Assembly (NCBI GenBank): GCA_964016885.1
Contig: OZ024742.1
Span: forward strand, 56,234,001 to 56,298,000
Origin: Eledone cirrhosa
Lineage: Eukaryota
Direction: 5' to 3'
Length of the DNA: 64,000 nucleotides
Part shown: positions 3,486-63,763 of the stretch, in pieces
Layout of the letters: the number at the start of each line of letters is the position of its first letter
Numbering within the stretch: the stretch's first letter is position 1
The notes under the pieces: generated by a model
Databases searched by the model: none
What the model saw: only the letters and a program-made list of their open reading frames with translations
Told to the model about the DNA's origin: nothing
Program-made: the position numbers and the translations under genes

Positions 3486-4199
3486 CTGCAAAAGAATGGA
3501 AAACATATCCTTAAATTGCATCTGAATATAATACATATATATACGGGTAACTCCATCCTTGTCCTATGTATATATATATATTCGTAAATAACTCTGTATC
3601 TGTGTGTCTCCGATTTTCTATCTCTATGCCTCTCCCTCAATATATATATATATATAATTCAATTAATGAAAGTTGGTTAATCCAAAAACTAAAACCACAC
3701 ATCTTAAACTGACTGAGGAGAACATCTGAAAGGGTTATTATGCAACCCCTCTGACATCTTCAAAATACATATAAACAGAATTATGTAATGTATAGATGCA
3801 CACGTAAAACAGCCAATCTTATTCATAATATATATATATATATATACTTTTATTAGGTTAAATCTCTACATATAAGATGAATATTGATTAAGTTACCCAA
3901 CAAGGAAAGCTCAGTGAAGATTAAGCTCAGAGCATAATTGTTATTACCCAGTTACATGTCTAAGTAAGTTTTATTCGATTGTCTTAATTAGGCAGGTAAC
4001 TAGTTAATGTACAGAGTGAGATATATATAGTAAAAGATTAATCATCTACAGGTGAACTTTCGACAATCTTGGCTAGATTATTTCTTCATGCGATTACATT
4101 TATTATTTGTCATTCTATATGTATGTACGTAATACTAGCCTTTTCTCTACTTGATATATGAAAATAACCTTTTTCTATATCGCTTTAATTTGTATAAAT

Positions 4200-7507: not shown

Positions 7508-7578
7508 TATTTTATTATGCGCATTTCAAAAGCAAATATCATCCTGGGACGATCGTTGCTTTCTCATCAGATAAAATA
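7508..7578 (-). ncRNA. Type I hammerhead ribozyme
   Basis: TATTTTAT-CTGATGA-GAAAGCAA...TTGCTTTT-GAAA-TGCGCA-TA^ATAAAATA; 8-bp helix I and palindromic helix III. Confidence 0.9.
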
Positions 7579-8077: not shown

Positions 8078-9480
8078 TCGTGTACATATTTTCAACAGTA
8101 ATACTATACTATATATGTTCAACAGTAATACTATACTATACATTTTCAACAGTGATACTATACTATGCTATATATTTTCAACAGTAATACTATACTATAT
8201 ATGTTTAACAGTAATACTATACTAGATGTTTTCAACATTAATATTAAACTCTATATTTTCAAAGATAATACTGTACTATATATTTTCAACAGTAATACTA
8301 TAATATATATTTTCATCAGTAATACTGTACTATATATTTTCAACAGTAATACTGTACTATACTATATATTTTCAACAGTAATACTGTACTATATATTTTC
8401 AACAGTAATACTATACCATATATTTCCAACAGTAATACTGTACTATATATTTTCAACAGTAATACTATACTATATGTTTTAACAGTAATACTATACTATA
8501 TATGTTCAACAGTAATACTATACTATACATTTTCAACAGTGATACTATACTATGCTATATATTTTCAACAGTAATACTATACTATATATGTTTAACAGTA
8601 ATACTATATGTTTTCAACATTAATATTAAACTCTATATTTTCAAAAATAATACTATACTATATATTTTCAACAGTAATACTATACTATATATTTTCAACA
8701 GTAATATTGTACTCTATATTTTCAACAGTAATACTATACTATATGTTTTCAACAGTAATATTATACTATATATTTTCAAAGGTAATACTATACTATACTA
8801 TATATTTTCAACAGTAATACTATACTATATATGTTTAACAGTAATACTGTACTATATAATTTCAACAGTAATACTGTACTATACTATATATTTTCAACAG
8901 TAATACTGTACTATATATTTTCAACAGTAATACTATACCATATATTTCCAACAGTAATACTGTACTATATATTTTCAGCAGTAATACTATACTATATGTT
9001 TTAACAGTAATACTATACTATATATGTTCAACAGTAATACTATACTATACATTTTCAACAGTGATACTATACTATGCTATATATTTTCAACAGTAATACT
9101 ATACTATATATGTTTAACAGTAAAACTATATGTTTTCAACATTAATATTAAACTCTATATTTTCAAAGATAATACTATATATTTTCAACAGTAATACTAT
9201 ACTATATATTTTCAACAGTAATATTGTACTCTATATTTTCAACAGTAATACTATACTATATATTTTCAACAGTAATATTATACTATATATTTTCAAAGGT
9301 AATACTATACTATATGTTTTCAACAGTAATACTATACTATATATGTTTAACCGTAATACTGTACTATATAATTTCAACAGTAATACTGTACTATACTATA
9401 TATTTTCAACAGTAATACTGTACTATATATTTTCAACAGTAATACTATATCATATATTTTCAACAATAATACTATACTAC
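8078..9480. repeat. ~24-bp minisatellite (ATATTTTCAACAGTAATACTATACT) with higher-order repeats
   Basis: Tandem units. The variant unit CAACATTAATATTAAACTC recurs near 8233, 8615 and 9137. Confidence 0.9.
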
Positions 9481-9886: not shown

Positions 9887-10032
9887 CTTTAGTAATAATG
9901 ATAAATTTGAAGACTAAAATCCAAAGAGGGCTCGATAAACATAAATATATATCAAATATATAAGAACCGTAGAGCAAATATTTGTTATTTTAATCTGTTA
10001 TTTTAATAAATATATATATATACATATATAAA

Positions 10033-10950
10033 AGACACTCCACCAGACATGACAATCGCTGCAGGCTAGCCAACTGCCCCATCAACGACACAGACCTATG
10101 CCACCAGGCTTACGTCGTATACAGACTAGAGTGCGACAAATGCAGCAACTTCTACGTAGGTAGCACCACCAGACCACCCCACATAAGAATAAAAGAACAC
10201 CTCAATACTAACGCTTCCTCATTCAAGAAACACCTAGTTAAATGCAAAAACACCGACAAAACCATAACAGTTAGGATAGAAACTAAGGAAAGAAACCTCG
10301 GCAATTTTAGAATTAAGGAAGCACTAATTATAGACAAAACGCAACCACCAATCAATAATAGACTAGAACTCAACACCCAATTTATAACTTGATAGAGCAT
10401 CTAGCCCCACACACACAGACACACAGACAGGCTTCACCTCCACTTATTCTCTCTCACACACACACACCTACACACACAAAGACCAGTTCTAACACGAGAT
10501 AACATCTATCCCCCACATTTACGTATAGACATATCTTCTCACTCTCACACACACATACAACCACATACTTACACCTTCACGCATTCTCCCACACACTTAA
10601 ACAGGCATGTACAAAAAAAAGCCTTTTAAAGGGAGACTACTCTTTATCCACCTAACCTTAACTCTTTGACATTAGAGATACAACAGATACTCTATACCAT
10701 TTCCTGTCAGCATGACTTGGCAAGCTATTTAGAACACTGGTTTAACCGCTTTACTTCCCTCCGAAGAAGAGATATTATCTCGAAAATTAAGGACATTTAA
10801 TTACATCTAAGGTAAAAGACTAATTGTTAACAATATCTTTTGCATTTGCATTCTTTATTCTATGTCCATACCTACATTGTTTTGGCTTTATTATACATAT
10901 ACAAACGTTTATAACTCATTACACAATGCTTCAAGTGAGCTATAACTTCC
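10033..10950 (+). mobile_element. Penelope-like element 3' fragment (GIY-YIG ORF 10033-10392 plus 3' UTR)
   Basis: Open frame ...C-x4-C-x7-C..VVYRLECDKCSNFYVGSTTRPPHIRIKEH...IKEALIIDKTQPPINNRLE, ending at TGA 10390-10392. Degenerate HHR-like motif CCGAAGA..GAAA near 10757-10795. TA-flanked. Confidence 0.88.
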
Positions 10951-11094: not shown

Positions 11095-12295
<1,201 letters not shown>

Positions 12296-12709: not shown

Positions 12710-15031
<2,322 letters not shown>

Positions 15032-16996: not shown

Positions 16997-21543
<4,547 letters not shown>

Positions 21544-21947: not shown

Positions 21948-22299
21948 TTCTTGTCTGATAATCCCGTGATAAGCAAGATGATACATAGAACTCACTTGGG
22001 GTGCTCTTGCTGCTTATACCCGTTAATCAACAAGAGGCGATTATATAACTCTTACTGATAAACAACACACGAATTAACACTATCTATCTATCTATCTTGA
22101 TAGAGTAAGACACGCTTCGCATCGGCTCCGCTATTCCATCGGGATTTACCCTTACTATTGTAAGTACCGGATAAATTTTTTAGTGCAACACATTTGGAAC
22201 ACTAACCCCTGTTATTTAGGGAAACATTTTTGCATTTACCCCCTTTTTAGGGGGTAAAATAAATATCTGTTTTTGCCGAAAAATTTCTTTCTTGGCAGC

Positions 22300-24132
22300 A
22301 TGGCGGAAAAGATGGCAGACATGTCTGCCATTAGCTCTGCCACGCCCCCCAAGTCTGAAGAACAAAAAATAATTACAACAAAATTAGACATTGAAACAAA
22401 CAAAGAAAATGAAAAAACAAATGTTAAGGAAAATGAGCAAACAGAAAACAAACAAACAGAAAATAATACAAATAACGACAGGGCAACTTTCGCCCAGAAA
22501 ACAAAACAATCCATTACATACACACCAATTGACCTAACTGCCGCCAGAGAAAAACTGGCCGAAGCAAAGAAACACATTGTTTTGGGGGAGAACGGAATGT
22601 TTTCCATTAACTCCCCCCCCCCAGAATTCAAGAAAGCCAGAGCAGAAAACACAGTTCTCTACAGAACTATACTGAACCAGACAAGAAAGCCAGCACAGCC
22701 CAGCCAAATGGAAATAGAGTTAGTCCTAAAAGACTATATGAAGAATATTCTCTTCATACGAAAGGACCGACTCTATGGCAGCATTTCGGTCCTAACAAGA
22801 GACAAAGAAACGGCGGAGAAGCTTTCCCTAAGCCCACTCTCATCGACAACATATAGCTTCTATCCCTCCTACATGGGTAGAAGAACACAGAGAGTAAAAG
22901 TAAAAACAATGCTGCCCACAATGGACTTCTGGTGGGCTATTGCTGGCTTCATTTATATGGGCGAAGACACAATGCTGTCAATGGGGAAGGCAACTGGAGA
23001 TGCGTTCCTGGGAATGGGCCTCGACATACTAGTCCAAATGAGGCCCGAAAGAATAGCACAAATCCCGGATCGCATCTGGCTGGATGACCTTACCCCAATA
23101 GACATAATTGTAGAGGGGAGAAGACCAGCATGCTATTTATGCATGGAAAGGGGACACGTTAAGGCTAACTGCCCGAAACGTATCCCCCAAAAAGGACTAT
23201 TGCCCACACCCACCACAAACAGTACACCAACACCACCCACCTCCAAAAATACACTAATACCACACACAGCAAACAAAATACAGACACCACCAACCACAAA
23301 CACAACACAAACATCACCACCACCAGCACCAAACACAAGCACGACACAAAAATCACCACCACCAACCACAACACAAACACCACCATCACCAACCACAAGC
23401 ACGACACAAACATTACCACCACCACCACAAAACCCATTCCAAACAAATAATAAAAAAAACAGTAACAAATCTACCTCTCCCGCAAAAAAAAAAACAACCA
23501 CACAACACGTCCCTCCCACCTAGCGCTGAAGAGTTTCCCCCAACTTCTGAAGAAGAAGGAGGAGAAGCCTTCAGACAAGTTAAAAGAAAAAAAAGAAAAC
23601 ACACACCCAGCACACCACAAATAACCCACACACAAACACCAACTCCAATCAAAAACACCCCACCCTCAACAAACAAAAATAAATCTGCACCTCCCCTCTC
23701 CGAAACATTGACAGCATCACAAAAAAAGACGTTGCAATACACATATATAAATAAAGAAAACAAAAAACTGGTTAAATTAATAAACAATAACCCTATGGTG
23801 CAGACCGAAGGGCCAAACTTTATCTCAACAGAGAACTTCACCCATTTAAAAATGATAAAGGTCCCTCTGGACCTTTATCGTTCCTTAAAAGAACAATTTA
23901 GACGGGACGTGAGCCCCCCCCCTGTTTAAAACCGTTGAATCGCGTCCTCTTGAAAGATTTCCCCATAACCGCCCCTCTCCCTGACACAACTCCAAATACC
24001 CCAACCCCACCACACACGTGTACCCCCACACCACCACAAAACATCCCTCCACCCAACACACCTGATGCCATGCAAATTACGCAACCCGGTGAGGTAAGTG
24101 CTTTTCTTTCTTCACTTTCAACACCAAAATAG
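22300..24132 (+). pseudogene. Tx1 ORF1 (gag-like; CCHC knuckle, Pro/Thr-rich tail), with two apparent frameshifts
   Basis: Knuckle CYLCMERGHVKANC. The frame breaks near the A-run at ~23484-23494 and the C-run at ~23914-23922. Confidence 0.8.
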
Positions 24133-27100
24133 ATCAATTGAGAGTTGGCTGTTTGAACGCGCGTGGCCTGGGCTCAGCTTGGAAGCAAGCAAAGCTTCTA
24201 AGTGACCTCAGGTCACAAAGTATAGATGTGATGGTTGTTTGCGAGAGTCGGATCAGCAGCGTGAGACAGCTGGCGCCCGCCTTCGATGACTTTGAGATGC
24301 ACGCATCTCTCTGTCAACCCGGAGGCGGGGGGGGGGAGTTGCCGTACTGCTGGATAAACGTCTGACTCTCGACGTACAGATTGTTCACTCGGACCCGGGG
24401 GGTCGATTACTGGTGCTGGACGTCGGAGGCGGTGAAGGCGGGGCTTTCAGACTGGTCGGTCTTTATGCTCCCTTCGGGGCGGAAAGAGCCGACTTCTTCC
24501 AGCGTCTGGAGACTTTTCTAGGAACGTCGCGTTCCCTGCTTTTAGTGGGGGACTGGAATGGAATCCTAGATGCGCGTTGGGACTATGCAGGGGCATGTCC
24601 CGATAGAGGGGGGTGTAGCAGCCTCAAGGGGTTACTCGATCGATTCGACCTGGTCGATAGATTTCGACTAGATTGTCCAACTGCGCCAACCTGGACCTGG
24701 GCAAACCGCAGTGGACAATCTAGATCGTACCTAGATAGGTTTTTGGTTAGGAGTAAGGATAGGGACGTATTTAGTTGTCCAGAACTGATCATGGTTGGCT
24801 ATTCAGATCACAAATTAGTGACCTGCGTGGTCAACCTTGATAGAACGCATAGACAGGGTCCCGGTTACTGGAAGATGAACTTGTCCTTACCGACAAAGAA
24901 AGATTACAGAAACCGGATTAGTGGCTTAGTTAAGATGCGGTTGACGGGAGCGATCGTCAACAGTAGGTGGTGGGTATCTCTAAAGAGAGAGATTAGAGTA
25001 AGTTCGATAGGTTACAGTAAGGAACTAGCGGCGAATAGAAATAGGAAGGAAAGGAAGTTAACAGATAAACTAGAAGAGGCGATTAGGAGCGGAGACGTAG
25101 CCAGAGTGTTAGCGACGAGAACGGCATTGAGCCAGTTCTTTGACGCGAAGCACGAAGGCTGCGTTGTCCGAAGTAAAATACGTGCTTTAGGAAACGAGGG
25201 GACCAAAGCTGTTAGCTGGGCCCGCGTGACAGAAGCCAAGAGTGGGATTAAATCCACCATTCGGTCTTTGCGAGACCAGGATGGACGGGTGATCCTTGAA
25301 CCTGAGCGAATGTGCGAGACCTTTCAAAGGCACTTTGCTCGACTGTTCGGAGGTGGCGGGGGGCCGGACGGGGATGTGGACTTCGGTCCATACCTCGACG
25401 GTCTACCGCGTCTTTCGAGCGGCGAAGCGGAGTGCTGCGAAAGGCCAATCACAGCCACTGAAATCGGGGAAGCGCTCAGCCAATGCAGCAGACGCAAATC
25501 CCCGGGTCTCGATGGTCTACCATACGAACTTTATTTAGCTATGCCGGTCTTGTTCTCCGAACTCCTCGAGGCTGTCTATTGCAACTGGCAACAGAACGGG
25601 AGAATTCCCTGTTCTGTGACCAAGGGCGTGGTCACGCTAGTGAGGAAGGATGAGAGCAAGGGGGACGACTTAAGTAACTTTAGGCCCATAACTCTGCTGA
25701 ATGCAGAGTTACAGATTTTGGCCAAGGTGTTGGCGAAGAGGTTGGCGCTTGTGGTGGGTGGTTTGGTGGGAGACGCGCAGACATGCGCTATCCCGTCCAG
25801 GTCCATTCACGACAACCTCCACCTCATGCGATACATCATAGAGAGGGTTGGCTACGAACCCGGCTTTGGTGGGGCCCTGATCAACTTGGATCAATCTAAG
25901 GCGTTCGATAGGGTCGACCATGGTTACCTGGATGCGGTGCTAGCGGCGGCGGGCTTCGGACCCGTTTTCAGGGGCTGGATTTCTGCCATGCACAGTGGCA
26001 ACATCTACTCTAGGATTAAAGTAAACGGCTACCTCTCGGAGCCGTTTCAAATCACCCGATCCATCAGACAGGGGTGCCCCCTCTCCTACCTTCTGTACGT
26101 ATTGACTCTCGAGCCACTGCTGCGGAAGTTGGAGTTGCTGCGGGGCATACCCCTGGAACCGGGATTGCACAAAGCGGTCTCGGCCTATGCCGACGACGTA
26201 ACAGTAATGGTGGCGGACGCCTCGGAAATCGGGGCGATCGCCACCCTACTGGAGGAATACGAAAGGCTGACGGGGGCTAAGCTGAAACAGGACAAGTCAG
26301 TCGGTTTGCAACTCGGAACGTGGAGGGGCAAACCGATGCCGTTAGACGGTGTCGTCGGGCGGTGGACGGAGGGCCCGGTGAAGCTGCTCGGGGTCTGGTT
26401 CGGACCGGACCTCCAGGTGGAGAAGAATTGGGGCGAGGTGACGAGCAGGGTGTTTGCGCTGACCCAGAAGTAGGCCAAGTGCAAACTATCACTGAAAGGT
26501 CGGGCGGAGGTGACGAACGCTTACATAGCGTCCGTCATCTACTACCGCCTGACCGTCGTGCCTTGCCCCAAGGAAAAGCTCACCATCATGGAACGCATGC
26601 TCTTCCAGTTCCTCTGGAAGAAGCGGCCTCCCATGGTGAGGAGATCCATCTGCTGCCAGCACCCTTCGAAAGGAGGGCTGGGTATGCCGTGGCTGTTGAT
26701 GCGTAGGCACGCATTGAGGCTACGGCATCTACAGGTATTCCTCAACGGTCAGCCGGTGTGGGCCCCGTTTGTGAGGCGAGCCTTCCCACAGCTCGTCTCG
26801 CTCACCGAACTGCAATCCTGGGTGAAGCAAAGACCGAGAAAACTGGGCAACTGGCACACCGAGTGTGCCCAGGCGCTCACGGCTATCTGGCAAGCGGACC
26901 CGACTGTCAGTGGAGAATCCACCTCGACATTCTATAGAGGGTTGGTGGCTAGCAGGGGCGACGACACCCTTGGAGAGTCGCTAGGCATGGAGGAGGACGA
27001 ACTGGCCAGCCTGTTCGGTAGAACTTTCGGCCCGGGACCCATGGACAACTTCCAGAGGTCCCTAGCCTGGCAGTGTTACCGGGGGGCTCTGCCCGTTCGA

Positions 27101-27568
27101 GAAAAGCTCTACAGACACGGGCGCCCGGGCAGGGATCCCGCGAAAAAGATCTGTCCCAGATGCGTGCGCGACGAGGAAACCGTTGCGCATGCACTGGTAC
27201 ACTGCCCGGGCGTTGCCGATCTGTGGGGCTACGTCGAACGACTGCTGTCGCGTGTGGCGCCGATTCGATTAACCGCCGAGTCTGTGGTGAACATCAAGCC
27301 GCCTCCTCCCTTCAGAAATGAAGCAGAGGCGGTCTTTCTGTGCGTAATAGCCATGATGAAAGAGGTTGTGTGGTGGACGCGCCTGAAAGGTCTGAGGTCG
27401 GGTGACTTTCTCTCCGGCCATCACCTGGTTTACTTCTTCCGATACCACTTCGGAAGAAGAATCAGGATGGAGAGAGAAGTGCTTGGTCCCAGACAGTTTT
27501 ATGAAAGGTGGGTGAAAGAAGCGAGAATGGCCCGTGTAAATGGGCCTTCTCTCTACATTGTTCTGTAG
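24129..27568 (+). pseudogene. Tx1 ORF2 (APE endonuclease-RT-zinc finger), with one frameshift and one nonsense codon
   Basis: Motifs LNARGL, GDWN, SYLDRF, SDH, PGLDG, FRPITLLN, LDQSKAFD, RQGCPLS, YADD and CPRC..ETVAHALVHC. Frameshift at the G-run ~24328-24337; TAG at 26471-26473 where Trp is expected. Confidence 0.92.
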
Positions 27569-29489: not shown

Positions 29490-30013
29490 GTAGAACACTG
29501 GAAGGTAATATCCGTAGTAGTAGAGCACTCAGTCCATGGGACGAGTTAGGCAGAAGTGGTTAAACAACAGTTACTTCACTATACCGAGAACAATTGTTTC
29601 ACCTTGGCAGATCCTCAGCTCGTAATGGACATGGTTATACGGAATAGGAAGACAAGCTAAAACTAGAAATGAATTCTTCACACGTTATCCACACGTCTGG
29701 AAACACCTCTTACATAACTAAAAAACTCCGGATTGAATTACAACAACATCCTAATTTTCTTATCAACTAGAAACTTTCGGACTTTCGCAGTTATATCCCT
29801 TACACCTCTCGCACGCAATTTAGTATTGCCTGTGTGAAGTGATCGTTTCTGCGCATGCGCGTTCGTACGGTTGTCCTTCCTGTTCCGTATAACCATGTCC
29901 ATTACGAGCTGAGGATCCGCTAAGGTGAAACAATTGTTCTCGGTATGGTGAACTAACTGTTGTGTAACCACTTATATATATTTATATATACATATATACA
30001 TATATACACACAC

Positions 30014-30157: not shown

Positions 30158-31160
30158 TCATAAAACATGTCTATAGAGTCACCAGATAAAATATATACCA
30201 TTTCCTCTCCCAATTAGCATAATTAACTATATAACAAATCGAATAGACCAGGCTATAAGAATAAGGCTTCTATGAAGAAATCTTCAACAAATAACCGAAA
30301 CTAGCCCTTCGCGTTGGCCGCAACGGAATATTTATTGAATATTTCGACAGCGTAATCGCCCAGATACAGTCAATTAAACAGAATTAGGTGTAAAATAAAC
30401 TAGGAGAAAATAGAATACATTTAAATACCTCTACCATGGTTTCGTCCGCATTTTGAGATTTCCAATAATTATGTAACTCGAGCATCGGACTCTTCAGGAG
30501 ATTTGCTCTGATCCAGACACTAAATTTTCCAAAGTGATCGCGCCAAGAATTAAGTCAAAATGGCTAAGAATCGTGACGTAGCAGCGGTCAGGTTGGAAGG
30601 GGTGTGGTAGTTGCTTACGGCTGGTGGCTTTTTTGCTAGAAAGCACAGCACAATACAGCCAAATTTGTATCTCTACCTAATGGGAGATTATTACATATAA
30701 AAGTTTACACATATATATATATATACATACATACATACATATACGTGTTTTGCAACGGGTGACTTTGTGGGTCAATGAAAATTTTATAAATTAAATAATC
30801 AGAGCTATATATCATAAAACATGTCTATAGAATCACCAGAAAAAATATAAACCATTTCCTCTCCCAATTAGCATAATTAACTATATAACAAATCGAATAG
30901 ACCAGGCTATAAGAATAAGGCTTCTATGAAGAAATCTCCAACAAATAACCGAAACTAGCCCTTCGCGTCGGCCGCCTTATTCTTATAGCCTGGTCTATTC
31001 GATTTGTTATATGGTTAATTATGCTAATTGGGAGAGGAAATGGTATATATTTTATCTGGTGATTCTATAGACATGTTTTATGATATATAGCTCTGATTAT
31101 TTAATTTATAAAATTTTCATTGAGCCACAAAGTGACCCGTTGCAAAACACGTATATGTAT
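30158..31160. mobile_element. HHR element family F: ~654-bp unit in partial tandem plus an inverted arm
   Basis: 30158-30320 is repeated at 30812-30974; 30975-31160 is an inverted copy of 30725-30921. Confidence 0.88.
30428..30501 (-). ncRNA. Type I hammerhead ribozyme
   Basis: TCTC-CTGAAGA-GTCCG...CGGAC-GAAA-CCATGG-TA^GAGG. Confidence 0.9.
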
Positions 31161-36568: not shown

Positions 36569-36859
36569 ATATCACAGAAAAAAAAGAGAATCAGTGTTGC
36601 GACGAATGGAATTTATTGGACATATTACAATCGTTTCTATGGCGACCAGGTCGAGGCACGATCGATGTGATGATCGAACCTGACTCTGAAAATCGCAAGG
36701 TCCTCAGATACGTCTTGATTCTACGAAGCAGATTTTCCTACGCAGAATCAGGTTTGATCATCACATCGATCGTGCCTCGAGCTGATCGCCAGAGAAACGA
36801 TTGTAATATGTCCAATAAATTCCATTCGTCGCAACATTGATTCTTTTTTTCTGTGATAT
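36569..36859. mobile_element. Head-to-head palindromic HHR element (family G)
   Basis: 36569-36689 is mirrored by 36743-36859. Confidence 0.85.
36619..36714 (-). ncRNA. Type I hammerhead with extended helix II
   Basis: GACGTAT-CTGAGGA-C...(CAGGTTCGA/TCGACCTG)...A-GAAA-CGATTG-TA^ATATGTC. Confidence 0.8.
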
Positions 36860-50327: not shown

Positions 50328-50402
50328 ATTGCTTCATCTGACGAACGAATGCGACGTCTCTTGTGTTCGTCCTGTTCAGGAAACCTCGGGTAATGAGGTA
50401 AT
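50328..50402 (+). ncRNA. Type I hammerhead with a 9-nt insertion before GAAA
   Basis: ATTGCTTCAT-CTGACGA-ACGAATGCGA/TTGTGTTCGT-CCTGTTCAG-GAAA-CCTCGGG-TA^ATGAGGTAAT. Confidence 0.75.
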
Positions 50403-52965: not shown

Positions 52966-53047
52966 CCTAGACAGTATCGTTTCTGCGCAATATAACTTCA
53001 CAAATGCAGAAATTGCATCCGTAAGGCTAATCTACGTCATCAGCAGA
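52966..53047 (-). ncRNA. Type I hammerhead with long helix II
   Basis: TCTG-CTGATGA-C...A-GAAA-CGATACTG-TC^TAGG. Confidence 0.65.
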
Positions 53048-53377: not shown

Positions 53378-53840
53378 TATTGTTATACTTTGGGAGGGTC
53401 ATGTTGCCAATAAGAAACACACGTACCAGTTGCTTTCACTTCAATTTATTATAATAAATTTAGAAATTTAGGAATTTATAAATTTCCGGTTGGTTGGTTG
53501 GTTCCACAACCAGATAGTTGTCTATATATTGTCAAAGTTCTTTCGTCACACATTCTGTGACCTCTTCAGTGACTGGGGATTCTTTTCTTTGTTTTGTGCC
53601 TTTCCTTTGTTCTGTCCTACGCCTTTGACAATATATAAACAACCATCTGGTTGTGGAACCAACCAACTAACCGGAAATTTATAAATTCCTAAATTTATAA
53701 ATTTATTATAATAAATTGAAGTGAAAGCAACTGGTGCGTGTGTTTCTTATTGGCAACATGACCCTCCCAATGTATAACAATATCGGTTTCAACACACGTT
53801 TTCAGATAAAGAATTTTGCTAAACAAATTCAGAAACGAAA
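53378..53840. mobile_element. Palindromic HHR element family K (HHR 53531-53573, minus)
   Basis: GTCA-CTGAAGA-G-GTCACA GAATG TGTGAC-GAAA-GAAC-TT^TGAC. A second palindromic copy lies at 62590-63110. Confidence 0.88.
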
Positions 53841-56465: not shown

Positions 56466-56496
<31 letters not shown>

Positions 56497-56503
<7 letters not shown>

Positions 56504-57428
56504 GCACATACATATATGTATACAGACGTACAGTAGTATGTATATATATATATATACATACATGCTGACATATATACATGTACGTATGGATTCCACGAAC
56601 ATTTATTATAATGCTCGGTGTGTTTGTAAGCAAACATCCCGTATTAAGCCGTAGTGTCCAGCAACCATCGTTGCTCATTTGCTCAACACTGACAAAGGAA
56701 CGCTGTACTAGTTTCAAGCTTATTAGCGATCGTCAGCAACGTATACCTTGCTTACGATAGCTAATAAGCTGGAAACTAGTACAGCGTTCCTTTGTCAGTG
56801 TTGAACAAACGAGCAACGATGGTTGCTGGACACTACGGCTTAATACGGGATGTTTGCTTACAATAAATGTTCGGTGAATCCATACGTACATGTATATATG
56901 TGGGCATGTATGTATAAATACATACTACTGTACGTCTGTATACATATATGTATGTACGTGTACATACTTATATTTAAGTAACAGCGGTACTAAAAGTGGG
57001 AAATGAAATTTCGTTTCATTTTTTCCGTTTATCGTTTTCGGTGCACCCGGCCGATTAACCCACTCGATATGCAAATTGGGCTACCCAGCCGTTAATATGC
57101 ATAAGGTAAGTATATACATTCAACAATCTGGCAGGAAGGTATACGTTGATGACGATAGCTAATAAGCTTGAAACTAGTACAGCGTTCCTTTGTCAGTGTT
57201 GAACAAACGAACAACGATGGTTGCTCTGACACTGCAGCTTAATACGGGATGTTTGTTTAAAAACACACCGAGCATTATAATAAATATTCGGTGAATCCAT
57301 ACGTACATATATATATGTGTGCATGTATACATACTACTGTACGTCTGTATACATATATGTATGTACTTATATTTAAGTAACACCCGTACTAAGAGTGGGA
57401 AATGAAATTTCGTTTCATTTTTTCCGTT

Positions 57429-57430
<2 letters not shown>
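56497..57430. mobile_element. Family H head-to-head plus tandem array
   Basis: HHR at 56700-56742 (minus); plus-strand copies at 56748-56787 (CTTACGA) and 57143-57185 (ATGACGA) have mutated cores. Confidence 0.88.
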
Positions 57431-57455
<25 letters not shown>

Positions 57456-57459
<4 letters not shown>

Positions 57460-58777
57460 GACGTAAAATAAGAACATTTTAAAAATTAAAAATTAACTTA
57501 CTTACTAAAATTTTCACTCCAACTAATTAGTTTCTGTAATGGGATAAAGATAGTTACGCAATGTAACCGTCGAGAATTCATTACGTCATCAGGGAGTCTA
57601 TTCTCAGCTAAGTCTCCAGGCAATGCGCGGACACTAGGGACTCATATAAAAATAATAATAATTCGGTGGATGGAACAGCTAGCGGGGACTGAATTCCAAA
57701 GCACTGAAAAAGTTCACTGTCTCTGGTCAAATGGCAGATTCTAAAGAATCAATCACGTGACACTGAGGCTAGTCGGAAGGAGTGGGTGGTAAAATGACAA
57801 AAGCCTACTACCACTACAATGAGTTAGTAGTGGATTTGGCAGGTTTGCTCAACAAATAAATAATTTGGAGATAAATATAGAGAATTAGTATATTTACCAA
57901 CATATGCGTACAGATGTACACTAATGCTAGCAAATACATAAGTTATGTCATAGTACCTAGGTGGTTCAATGCAGGAGGATGCGGAACAATTATATGAAAG
58001 ACGTAAAATAAGAAAATTTTAAAAATTAAAAATTAACTTACTTACTAAAATTTTCACTCCTAGAGTGAAAATTTTAGTAAGTAAGTTAATTTTTAATTTT
58101 TAAAATTTTCTTATTTTACGTCTTTCATATAATTGTTCCGCATCCTCCTGCATTGAACCACCTAGGTACTATGACATAACTTATGTATTTGCTAGCATTA
58201 GTGTACATCTGTACGCATATGTTGGTAAATATACTAATTCTCTATATTTATCTCCAAATTATTTATTTGTTGAGCAAACCTGCCAAATCCACTACTAACT
58301 CATTGTAGTGGTAGTAGGCTTTTGTCATTTTACCACCCCACTCCTTCTGACTAGCCTCAGTGTCACGTGATTGATTCTTTAGAATCTGCCATTTGACCAG
58401 AGACAGTGAACTTTTTCAGTGCTTTGGAATTCAGTCCCCGCTAGCTGTTCCATCCACCGAATTATTATTATTTTTATATGAGTCCCTAGTGTCCGCGCAT
58501 TGCCTGGAGACTTAGCTGAGAATAGACTCCCTGATGACGTAATGAATTCTCGACGGTTACATTGCGTAACTATCTTTATCCCATTACAGAAACTAATTAG
58601 TTGGAGTGAAAATTTTAGTAAGTAAGTTAATTTTTAATTTTTAAAATTTTCTTATTTTACGTCTTTCATATAATTGTTCTGCATCCTCCTGCATTGAACC
58701 ACCTAGGTACTATGACATAACTTATGTATCTGCTAACATTAGTGTACATCTGTACGCATATGTTGGTAAATATACTA

Positions 58778-58782
<5 letters not shown>
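57456..58782. mobile_element. Family D relative: 540-bp unit, head-to-head palindrome (HHRs 57516-57597 minus, 58526-58607 plus)
   Basis: Homologous to the 17158-21483 units; inversion junction at 58060-58063. Confidence 0.92.
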
Positions 58783-58853
<71 letters not shown>

Positions 58854-61668: not shown

Positions 61669-61734
61669 TATTTCATTATACATATTTCAGGGATACCATA
61701 TTAAAAATATGGCATGCCTTCGTCAGATAAAATA
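61669..61734 (-). ncRNA. Type I hammerhead ribozyme (family L)
   Basis: TATTTTAT-CTGACGA-AGGCATGCCATATT..AATATGGTATCCCT-GAAA-TATGTA-TA^ATGAAATA. Confidence 0.9.

Positions 61735-63318: not shown

Positions 63319-63763
<445 letters not shown>

Follow-up and report, generated by a model that had tools for sequence, protein, structure and literature searches.

Penelope-like elements (PLEs) are described as carrying an inverted, 5'-truncated copy and a tail at one end only, with microsatellites as targets (PMC8557442), and in their insertion both target strands are reported to be cleaved and extended, with two reverse transcriptase (RT) start sites (PMC11167929). The role of their hammerhead ribozymes is less settled. 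PLE-type hammerheads are reported to be poor cleavers that work as dimers (PMC4209133), their activity in vivo is stated to be unproven (PMC4209133, PMC8557442, PMC11167929; review PMC6765202), and their function is called unclear in one of these (PMC8557442). Insertion of an anole PLE in vitro did not need hammerhead cleavage, and no RNA reads ending at the hammerhead cut are reported in the same work (PMC11167929). Animal retrozymes, by comparison, are reported to be processed in vivo to linear and circular monomers (PMC7229834), so hammerhead activity in vivo would not be new as such. In R2, the ribozyme cut site is reported to correlate with types of genomic 5' junction (PMC3774820), and insertions made from a ribozyme-headed R2 template are often slightly 5'-truncated and sometimes have extra bases (PMC11331408). 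A literature search, with most subscription papers and all supplements outside it, gave no paper in which inversion junctions were mapped to a hammerhead cut. The term non-LTR retrozyme is used below in the working sense of bioRxiv 10.64898/2026.07.22.740005.

The window analyzed here is a 64,000-nt stretch of the Eledone cirrhosa genome, whose assembly is 3.0 Gb and rich in TA microsatellites. At 57451-58792, two divergent arms of one repeat, here called family D, are separated by a 2-nt spacer (Table 1). The junction sequence, at 58051-58071, is ...TTTTCACTCC to the left of the TA spacer and GAGTGAAAA... to its right; the spacer bases are likely untemplated. The left arm consists of one 540-nt unit plus 70 nt and terminates at the fixed position-70 end of the family, while the right arm consists of one 541-nt unit plus about 190 nt and terminates at the fixed position-190 end, with its last 10 nt or so merging into the TA run. 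Each arm crosses an intact hammerhead. The initial annotation had put the first bases of the arms at +1 (58060, minus arm) and +2 (58063, plus arm) of a predicted GUU^G cleavage site, with a full unit running through an intact hammerhead on each side; this description is exact. None of the listed stop-to-stop frames of at least 110 aa falls in this interval.

Table 1. Positions in the window of the head-to-head family D copy and of further hammerhead-like motifs.
Feature	Position	Strand	Remarks
(TA)n target microsatellite, left flank	57429..57455	.	
Left arm	57451..58060	-	610 nt; starts at +1 of predicted cut
Type I hammerhead, left arm	57516..57597	-	Predicted cut between 57521 and 57520; intact read-through
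TA spacer at inversion junction	58061..58062	.	2 nt, without microhomology
Right arm	58063..58792	+	730 nt; starts at +2 of predicted cut
Type I hammerhead, right arm	58526..58607	+	Predicted cut between 58602 and 58603
Predicted distal helix I extension, right arm	58510..58623	+	Pairs +11..+21; +6..+10 unpaired
(TA)n target microsatellite, right flank	58782..58851	.	
Further hammerhead-like motifs (i)	7516-7570, 12119-12163, 14912-14975, 30432-30497, 36626-36707		
Further hammerhead-like motifs (ii)	50338-50392, 52970-53043, 53535-53569, 61677-61726, 63480-63716		

The two arms are identical at 607 of 610 positions. Between their first units, 2 of 540 sites differ, and a variant common to both is absent from all other loci compared; the second unit of the right arm differs from the first at 5 of 189 sites. 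The pattern indicates that both arms were copied from one linear, mixed multimer (or derive from one source locus). Rolling-circle copying of a single monomer circle was rejected for this copy because successive units differ (the 5 of 189 sites). An assembly artefact was also considered and rejected, since the arms differ at 3 sites, the ends are family-specific, and the same anatomy is found in 61 of 90 copies.

A loose hammerhead scan identified CUGAUGA...GAAAC-UAAUUA-GUU^GGAGU in each arm; a scan of the window against Rfam gave zero matches at gathering thresholds. The right-arm hammerhead has a helix I of ACUCC/GGAGU, the core CUGAUGA, a bulged C, a long helix II, GAAA, and a palindromic helix III, AACUAAUUAGUU. 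The core residues expected of a hammerhead (CUGANGA, GAAA, and an NUH triplet) are present in the window copies as CUGAUGA, GAAA, and GUU. They are invariant or nearly so in a set of 16 diverse copies (14 of less than 93% likeness from the 90 unselected loci described below, plus two window copies), all chosen with a search pattern in which the core was required. Helix I is 5 bp long and open-ended, and among the 16 copies its pairing is kept by way of C-to-U wobble changes. Helix II is closed, and at two of its pairs both partners are changed, in 8 and 5 sequences of the 16, respectively. Together, the invariant core and the both-side changes in helix II argue that the ribozyme has been kept by selection. 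Helix III can form a 12-bp self-duplex (-11.4 kcal/mol) and so is able to pair between copies, and pairing probabilities of at least 0.9 are predicted for +1..+5 and +11..+21. The fold of the 121-nt region is unexceptional against shuffled sequences (z -1.66). The "non-canonical" label originally given to this ribozyme was overstated: its core is that of a standard hammerhead, and its other traits (a bulged C, a long helix II, and a palindromic helix III) are those described for the Penelope type in PMC4209133. In several family D copies, the cut triplet is GAT or GCT rather than GTT; such copies, should they belong to one subfamily, would be a natural uncleavable control.

An exact 26-nt end pattern matches 1,795 places in the genome, so that family D has at least 1,795 copies. 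Ninety of the first 100 matches were taken as an unselected sample, each having a position-70 arm end by design. An opposed partner arm is present at the junction in 61 of the 90, and in 52 of these two-armed copies it terminates at unit position 182-209. Position-190 ends run into a TA run in 33 of 50 cases; at the position-70 end, adjoining TA was demanded by the search pattern. Tandem arms reach five units, each with a type I hammerhead (e.g., at 17154-21487 in the window). No fixed haplotype was found that distinguishes terminal from internal units. Family D is thus a non-coding non-LTR retrozyme with a 540-nt unit and a Penelope-like insertion anatomy, and works like a non-autonomous PLE.

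A young and abundant GIY-YIG PLE family with open frames of up to 949 aa is present in the same genome. Its GIY-YIG end occurs in the window at 9994-10392 (17,423 candidates), and in the locus with the 949-aa frame (L223) a loose scan found no hammerhead. As a possible autonomous partner, 21 loci of this one family were compared with family D and had no homology to it beyond one 21-nt match. The array at 17154-21487 has nine units head to head and belongs to a subfamily 82% identical to family D, with a 560-nt unit; its units differ at 0-3 sites, which fits a circular or homogeneous template, and both arms appear to terminate at position 70. Elsewhere in the window are a near-complete LINE-like element (22258-27568) with a 421-aa ORF1-like frame and with endonuclease and RT domains (Pfam PF03372, PF00078), interrupted by a stop at 26471-26473, and a 27-nt minisatellite of about 51 copies (8086-9479). 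The window is also very dense in hammerhead-like motifs with palindromic helix III, with at least six besides those of the named families (Table 1), none of which reaches the Rfam threshold in the window scan.

Most family D junctions in the unselected sample lie away from the cut, at positions scattered through the unit, and intact read-through was found at 4,146 cut sites. With one arm end near the cut being roughly a 1% event and at least 1,795 copies in the genome, copies like that at 57451-58792 are expected by chance, and any claim of cleavage in vivo must therefore rest on the statistics of the family. Of the 151 arm ends in the unselected sample, 26 are in +1..+20 (p = 7e-11), but just 3 come to within 3 nt of the cut itself (p = 0.24 vs. 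uniform). For position-190 arms, the end rate is 0.255 in +1..+20, vs. 0-0.06 per bin in 41-180.

Ends were mapped more finely by searching the genome for the post-cut sequence preceded by four discordant bases and tallying the residual match by hand. From +1 to -9, the tally was 15, 11, 9, 0, 8, 4, 2, 1, 1, and 3 (54 matches). After two duplicates were merged, 33 of 52 ends were in +1..-2 and 19 in -3..-9 (binomial p = 6e-7 vs. 0.3), making arm ends at +1..-2 about four times as frequent per position as at the seven positions upstream. Thirty of the 54 loci were inspected, giving 17 real junctions at +1..-2 vs. seven upstream (p = 4e-5), with four internal deletions and two ambiguous cases left out. 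Ends were evenly distributed in one control window, with 20 of 63 in its first three positions. In the other, after nine copies of one duplication were merged, the proportion was 18 of 34, not significantly below that at the cut (Fisher p = 0.23); a variant base in the gap is in part responsible for this skew. Normalized end rates are 0.67 at the cut and 0.17 upstream, with control averages of 0.25 and 0.16, placing the cut peak 2.7- to 4-fold over the two control windows. The corresponding ends per position per pass are estimated at 1.5% for +1..-2, 0.36% upstream, and 0.28% overall, rough figures that depend on a filter pass rate of 0.168. Two procedures were excluded from the counts: a lenient re-alignment of arm ends, which crossed palindromic junctions, and one 554-match search, in which substitution variants dominated. 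The initial annotation had proposed looking for a peak of 5' ends at GUU^G; such a peak is real and also modest, at about 4-fold over upstream positions.

Just 3' of the cut, there is a second and larger accumulation. A hand tally of 64 matches placed four at +2..+4 vs. 16 at +1..-2, and this trough separates the +1 peak from one at about +7, located in the loop just before helix I. By a common gap rule, 114 near-symmetric junctions were found just 3' of the cut, with 46 in an AT-rich control window, 12 just 5' of the cut, and six mid-unit; per anchor, these are 1.37, 0.32, 0.11, and 0.08, respectively. The AT-rich control lies 34 nt further on and contains the same AAAATTTT palindrome. The normalized excess at the cut over this control is about 4-fold (p = 4e-19), in a comparison where one arm of the control is only about 25 nt long. 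Among the first 50 of these 114, hand counting gives about 33 that join at AAAATTTT, i.e., at about +7, while 10 have an arm at -2..+2 and seven have both. At 20 loci, both arms start near the cut; by hand count, 15 of them include an arm at +1/-1, or 13 of 18 once two near-duplicate pairs are merged. Arm ends also accumulate in helix II, on its 3' strand at unit positions 501-520 (15 of 151, p = 5e-4), showing that folding by itself is enough to stop or trap the RT.

What the data establish directly is how the copies are built, that the hammerhead is conserved, that there are two fixed 3' ends, that (TA)n is the target, and that arm ends are in excess at the cut. As to their origin, it seems probable (about 0.65) that a minority of family D templates cleaved themselves in vivo before being copied into DNA, the genomic traces being an indirect indication of self-cleavage at the predicted GUU^G. 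A multimeric transcript would be cleaved inefficiently, with its palindromic helix III and dimer-type fold, and a Penelope-like RT/GIY-YIG protein acting in trans would nick both (TA)n strands and prime two cDNAs, one at unit position 70 and another at about 190. Usually both cDNAs would stop early and be joined by microhomology. On a cleaved template, both would run off the same 5' end at +1 and be end-joined with a few untemplated bases (two in the 57451-58792 copy), or else be shortened by trimming as far as the AAAATTTT palindrome at +7. For the 57451-58792 copy, the template would have been a linear RNA cut at one hammerhead and uncut at the next. The cleaved-template route is a minority one, estimated at about 4% of passes through the site. 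The initial reading of this junction as a record of self-cleavage in vivo therefore stands insofar as a cleaved template is its likeliest source; a single copy is not enough to read it from, and the route is not the usual one.

The RT might instead stall at a folded, uncut ribozyme, with helix I and the core gathering ends at +1..+10 without any self-cleavage. The strong pairing predicted for +1..+5 and +11..+21, the location of the largest pile-up at about +7, the further pile-up inside helix II, and the 4,146 sites read through uncut would all fit, but stalling does not readily account for a +1 peak set apart by the trough at +2..+4, for the steep drop in ends 5' of the cut, or for cut-class junctions that are mostly blunt or insert-bearing. 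Two other families in the window also fold as hammerheads, yet have no such peak. One, family E, has an approximately 399-nt unit with GAAAC-UA-GUA^ (56485-57431), and its head-to-head junction at 56743/56744 is 1.3 kb from the family D junction and about 40 nt upstream of its own cut; genome-wide, there is no peak at the predicted cut (19 of 68). The other, family F, is a third hammerhead family, head-to-head at 29490-29975, also with no peak at the predicted cut (30 among the first 100 of 132 matches); one of its junctions, with arms at -7 and +1/-2, recurs at about five loci. For a fourth hammerhead family, the same end search gave four matches. On balance, stalling as the whole explanation is unlikely.

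Families E and F bear differently on the idea that microhomology or fold-back within an AT-rich, palindromic stretch sets the junction, with +1/+2 arising by chance among thousands of copies. Their own peaks are near their helix III palindromes (in family E, 13 of 70 ends are at -5, within the palindrome). Most family D junctions are located elsewhere than at the cut, the second control window has the same kind of skew as the cut site, and the AT-rich palindrome by itself raises the number of symmetric junctions (46 vs. six mid-unit). Overall, the cut-site excess is family-specific and partly explained without cleavage. As an account of the whole excess, however, this one is improbable. The sequence at +1 (GGAGTG) is non-palindromic, and sites at +1/-1 are used at 15 of the 20 loci with both arms near the cut, while the longer, 12-bp palindrome of helix III just 5' of the cut attracts only two; the 4-fold normalized excess remains over a control with the same palindrome; and the 57451-58792 junction itself has no microhomology. 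Microhomology is also rarer at cut-class junctions than at others (4 of 27 vs. 25 of 65, p = 0.03), in selected sets with two duplicate pairs left unmerged. Finally, +1 could be a genuine RNA 5' end made by transcription initiation or by a protein nuclease. Genomic junctions would not reveal how a 5' end arose, but this one coincides to the base with the site set by the conserved hammerhead core, and a G precedes +1 in just six of 25 matches at +1/-1 (hand count), with no clear cap-derived G. Such an origin is very improbable.

Self-cleavage of a minority of templates is preferred for the +1 peak. Several results weigh against it as well: the skew of the second control window, the small number of unselected ends close to the cut (3 of 151), the lack of a cut-site peak in families E and F, the pile-up in helix II, the number of symmetric junctions at the AT-rich palindrome, the negative partner comparison in one PLE family, and the in vitro insertion of the anole PLE without need of hammerhead cleavage (PMC11167929). 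A broader proposal, put forward tentatively and with somewhat less than even odds, is that ribozyme-cut linear templates gave rise both to the peak at +1 and to the larger pile-up at +7, which account for about one fifth of arm ends between them, and that the inversion junctions of Penelope-mobilized repeats form a fossil map of RNA 5' ends. If so, they would provide a sequence-only assay for which hammerhead families have cleaved in the germ line, and animal retrozymes would insert from linear, two-primed templates, not from circles alone. An integrated 5'-end peak at the cut would be germ-line evidence for cleaved RNA as a template and would at the same time reveal most templates to be uncut; it can be looked for in any assembly.

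Among described elements, the metazoan non-LTR retrozymes (PMC7229834; bioRxiv 10.64898/2026.07.22.740005) are like family D in being non-coding tandems with a type I hammerhead per unit, high-copy and dispersed in a genome with young PLEs. The 540-nt unit compares with reported sizes of 170-400 nt (PMC7229834) and 51-972 nt (bioRxiv 10.64898/2026.07.22.740005). Unlike them, family D has a Penelope-type long helix II, head-to-head insertions, and two fixed 3' ends, and for at least some of its copies the template was a linear, mixed multimer and not a circular monomer. Through the two fixed 3' ends, a retrozyme is linked directly to the PLE mechanism.

The EN+ PLEs and their non-autonomous derivatives (PMC8557442, PMC11167929, PMC4209133) resemble family D in their partial tandems and (TA)n targets, in having at the 5' end a 5'-truncated copy in inverted orientation, in a tail on one end only (two RT start sites), and in the palindromic helix III of their hammerhead. 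Family D differs in having no ORF and a tail of about 120 nt, vs. 30-40 nt as reported for theirs, and in its junctions, those three papers reporting no trace in vivo of hammerhead cleavage. In R2, with a 5' HDV-like ribozyme (PMC3774820, PMC11331408), the cut is likewise described as setting the template 5' end and being visible in genomic junctions, with untemplated bases and slight 5' trimming. There, however, the ribozyme and RT are of other classes, the cut is the normal 5' end rather than a minority route, and the junction joins cDNA to target, while that of family D joins two cDNAs. Overall, family D is a known kind of element, and the ends at its cut site are a modest, testable, and new line of evidence.
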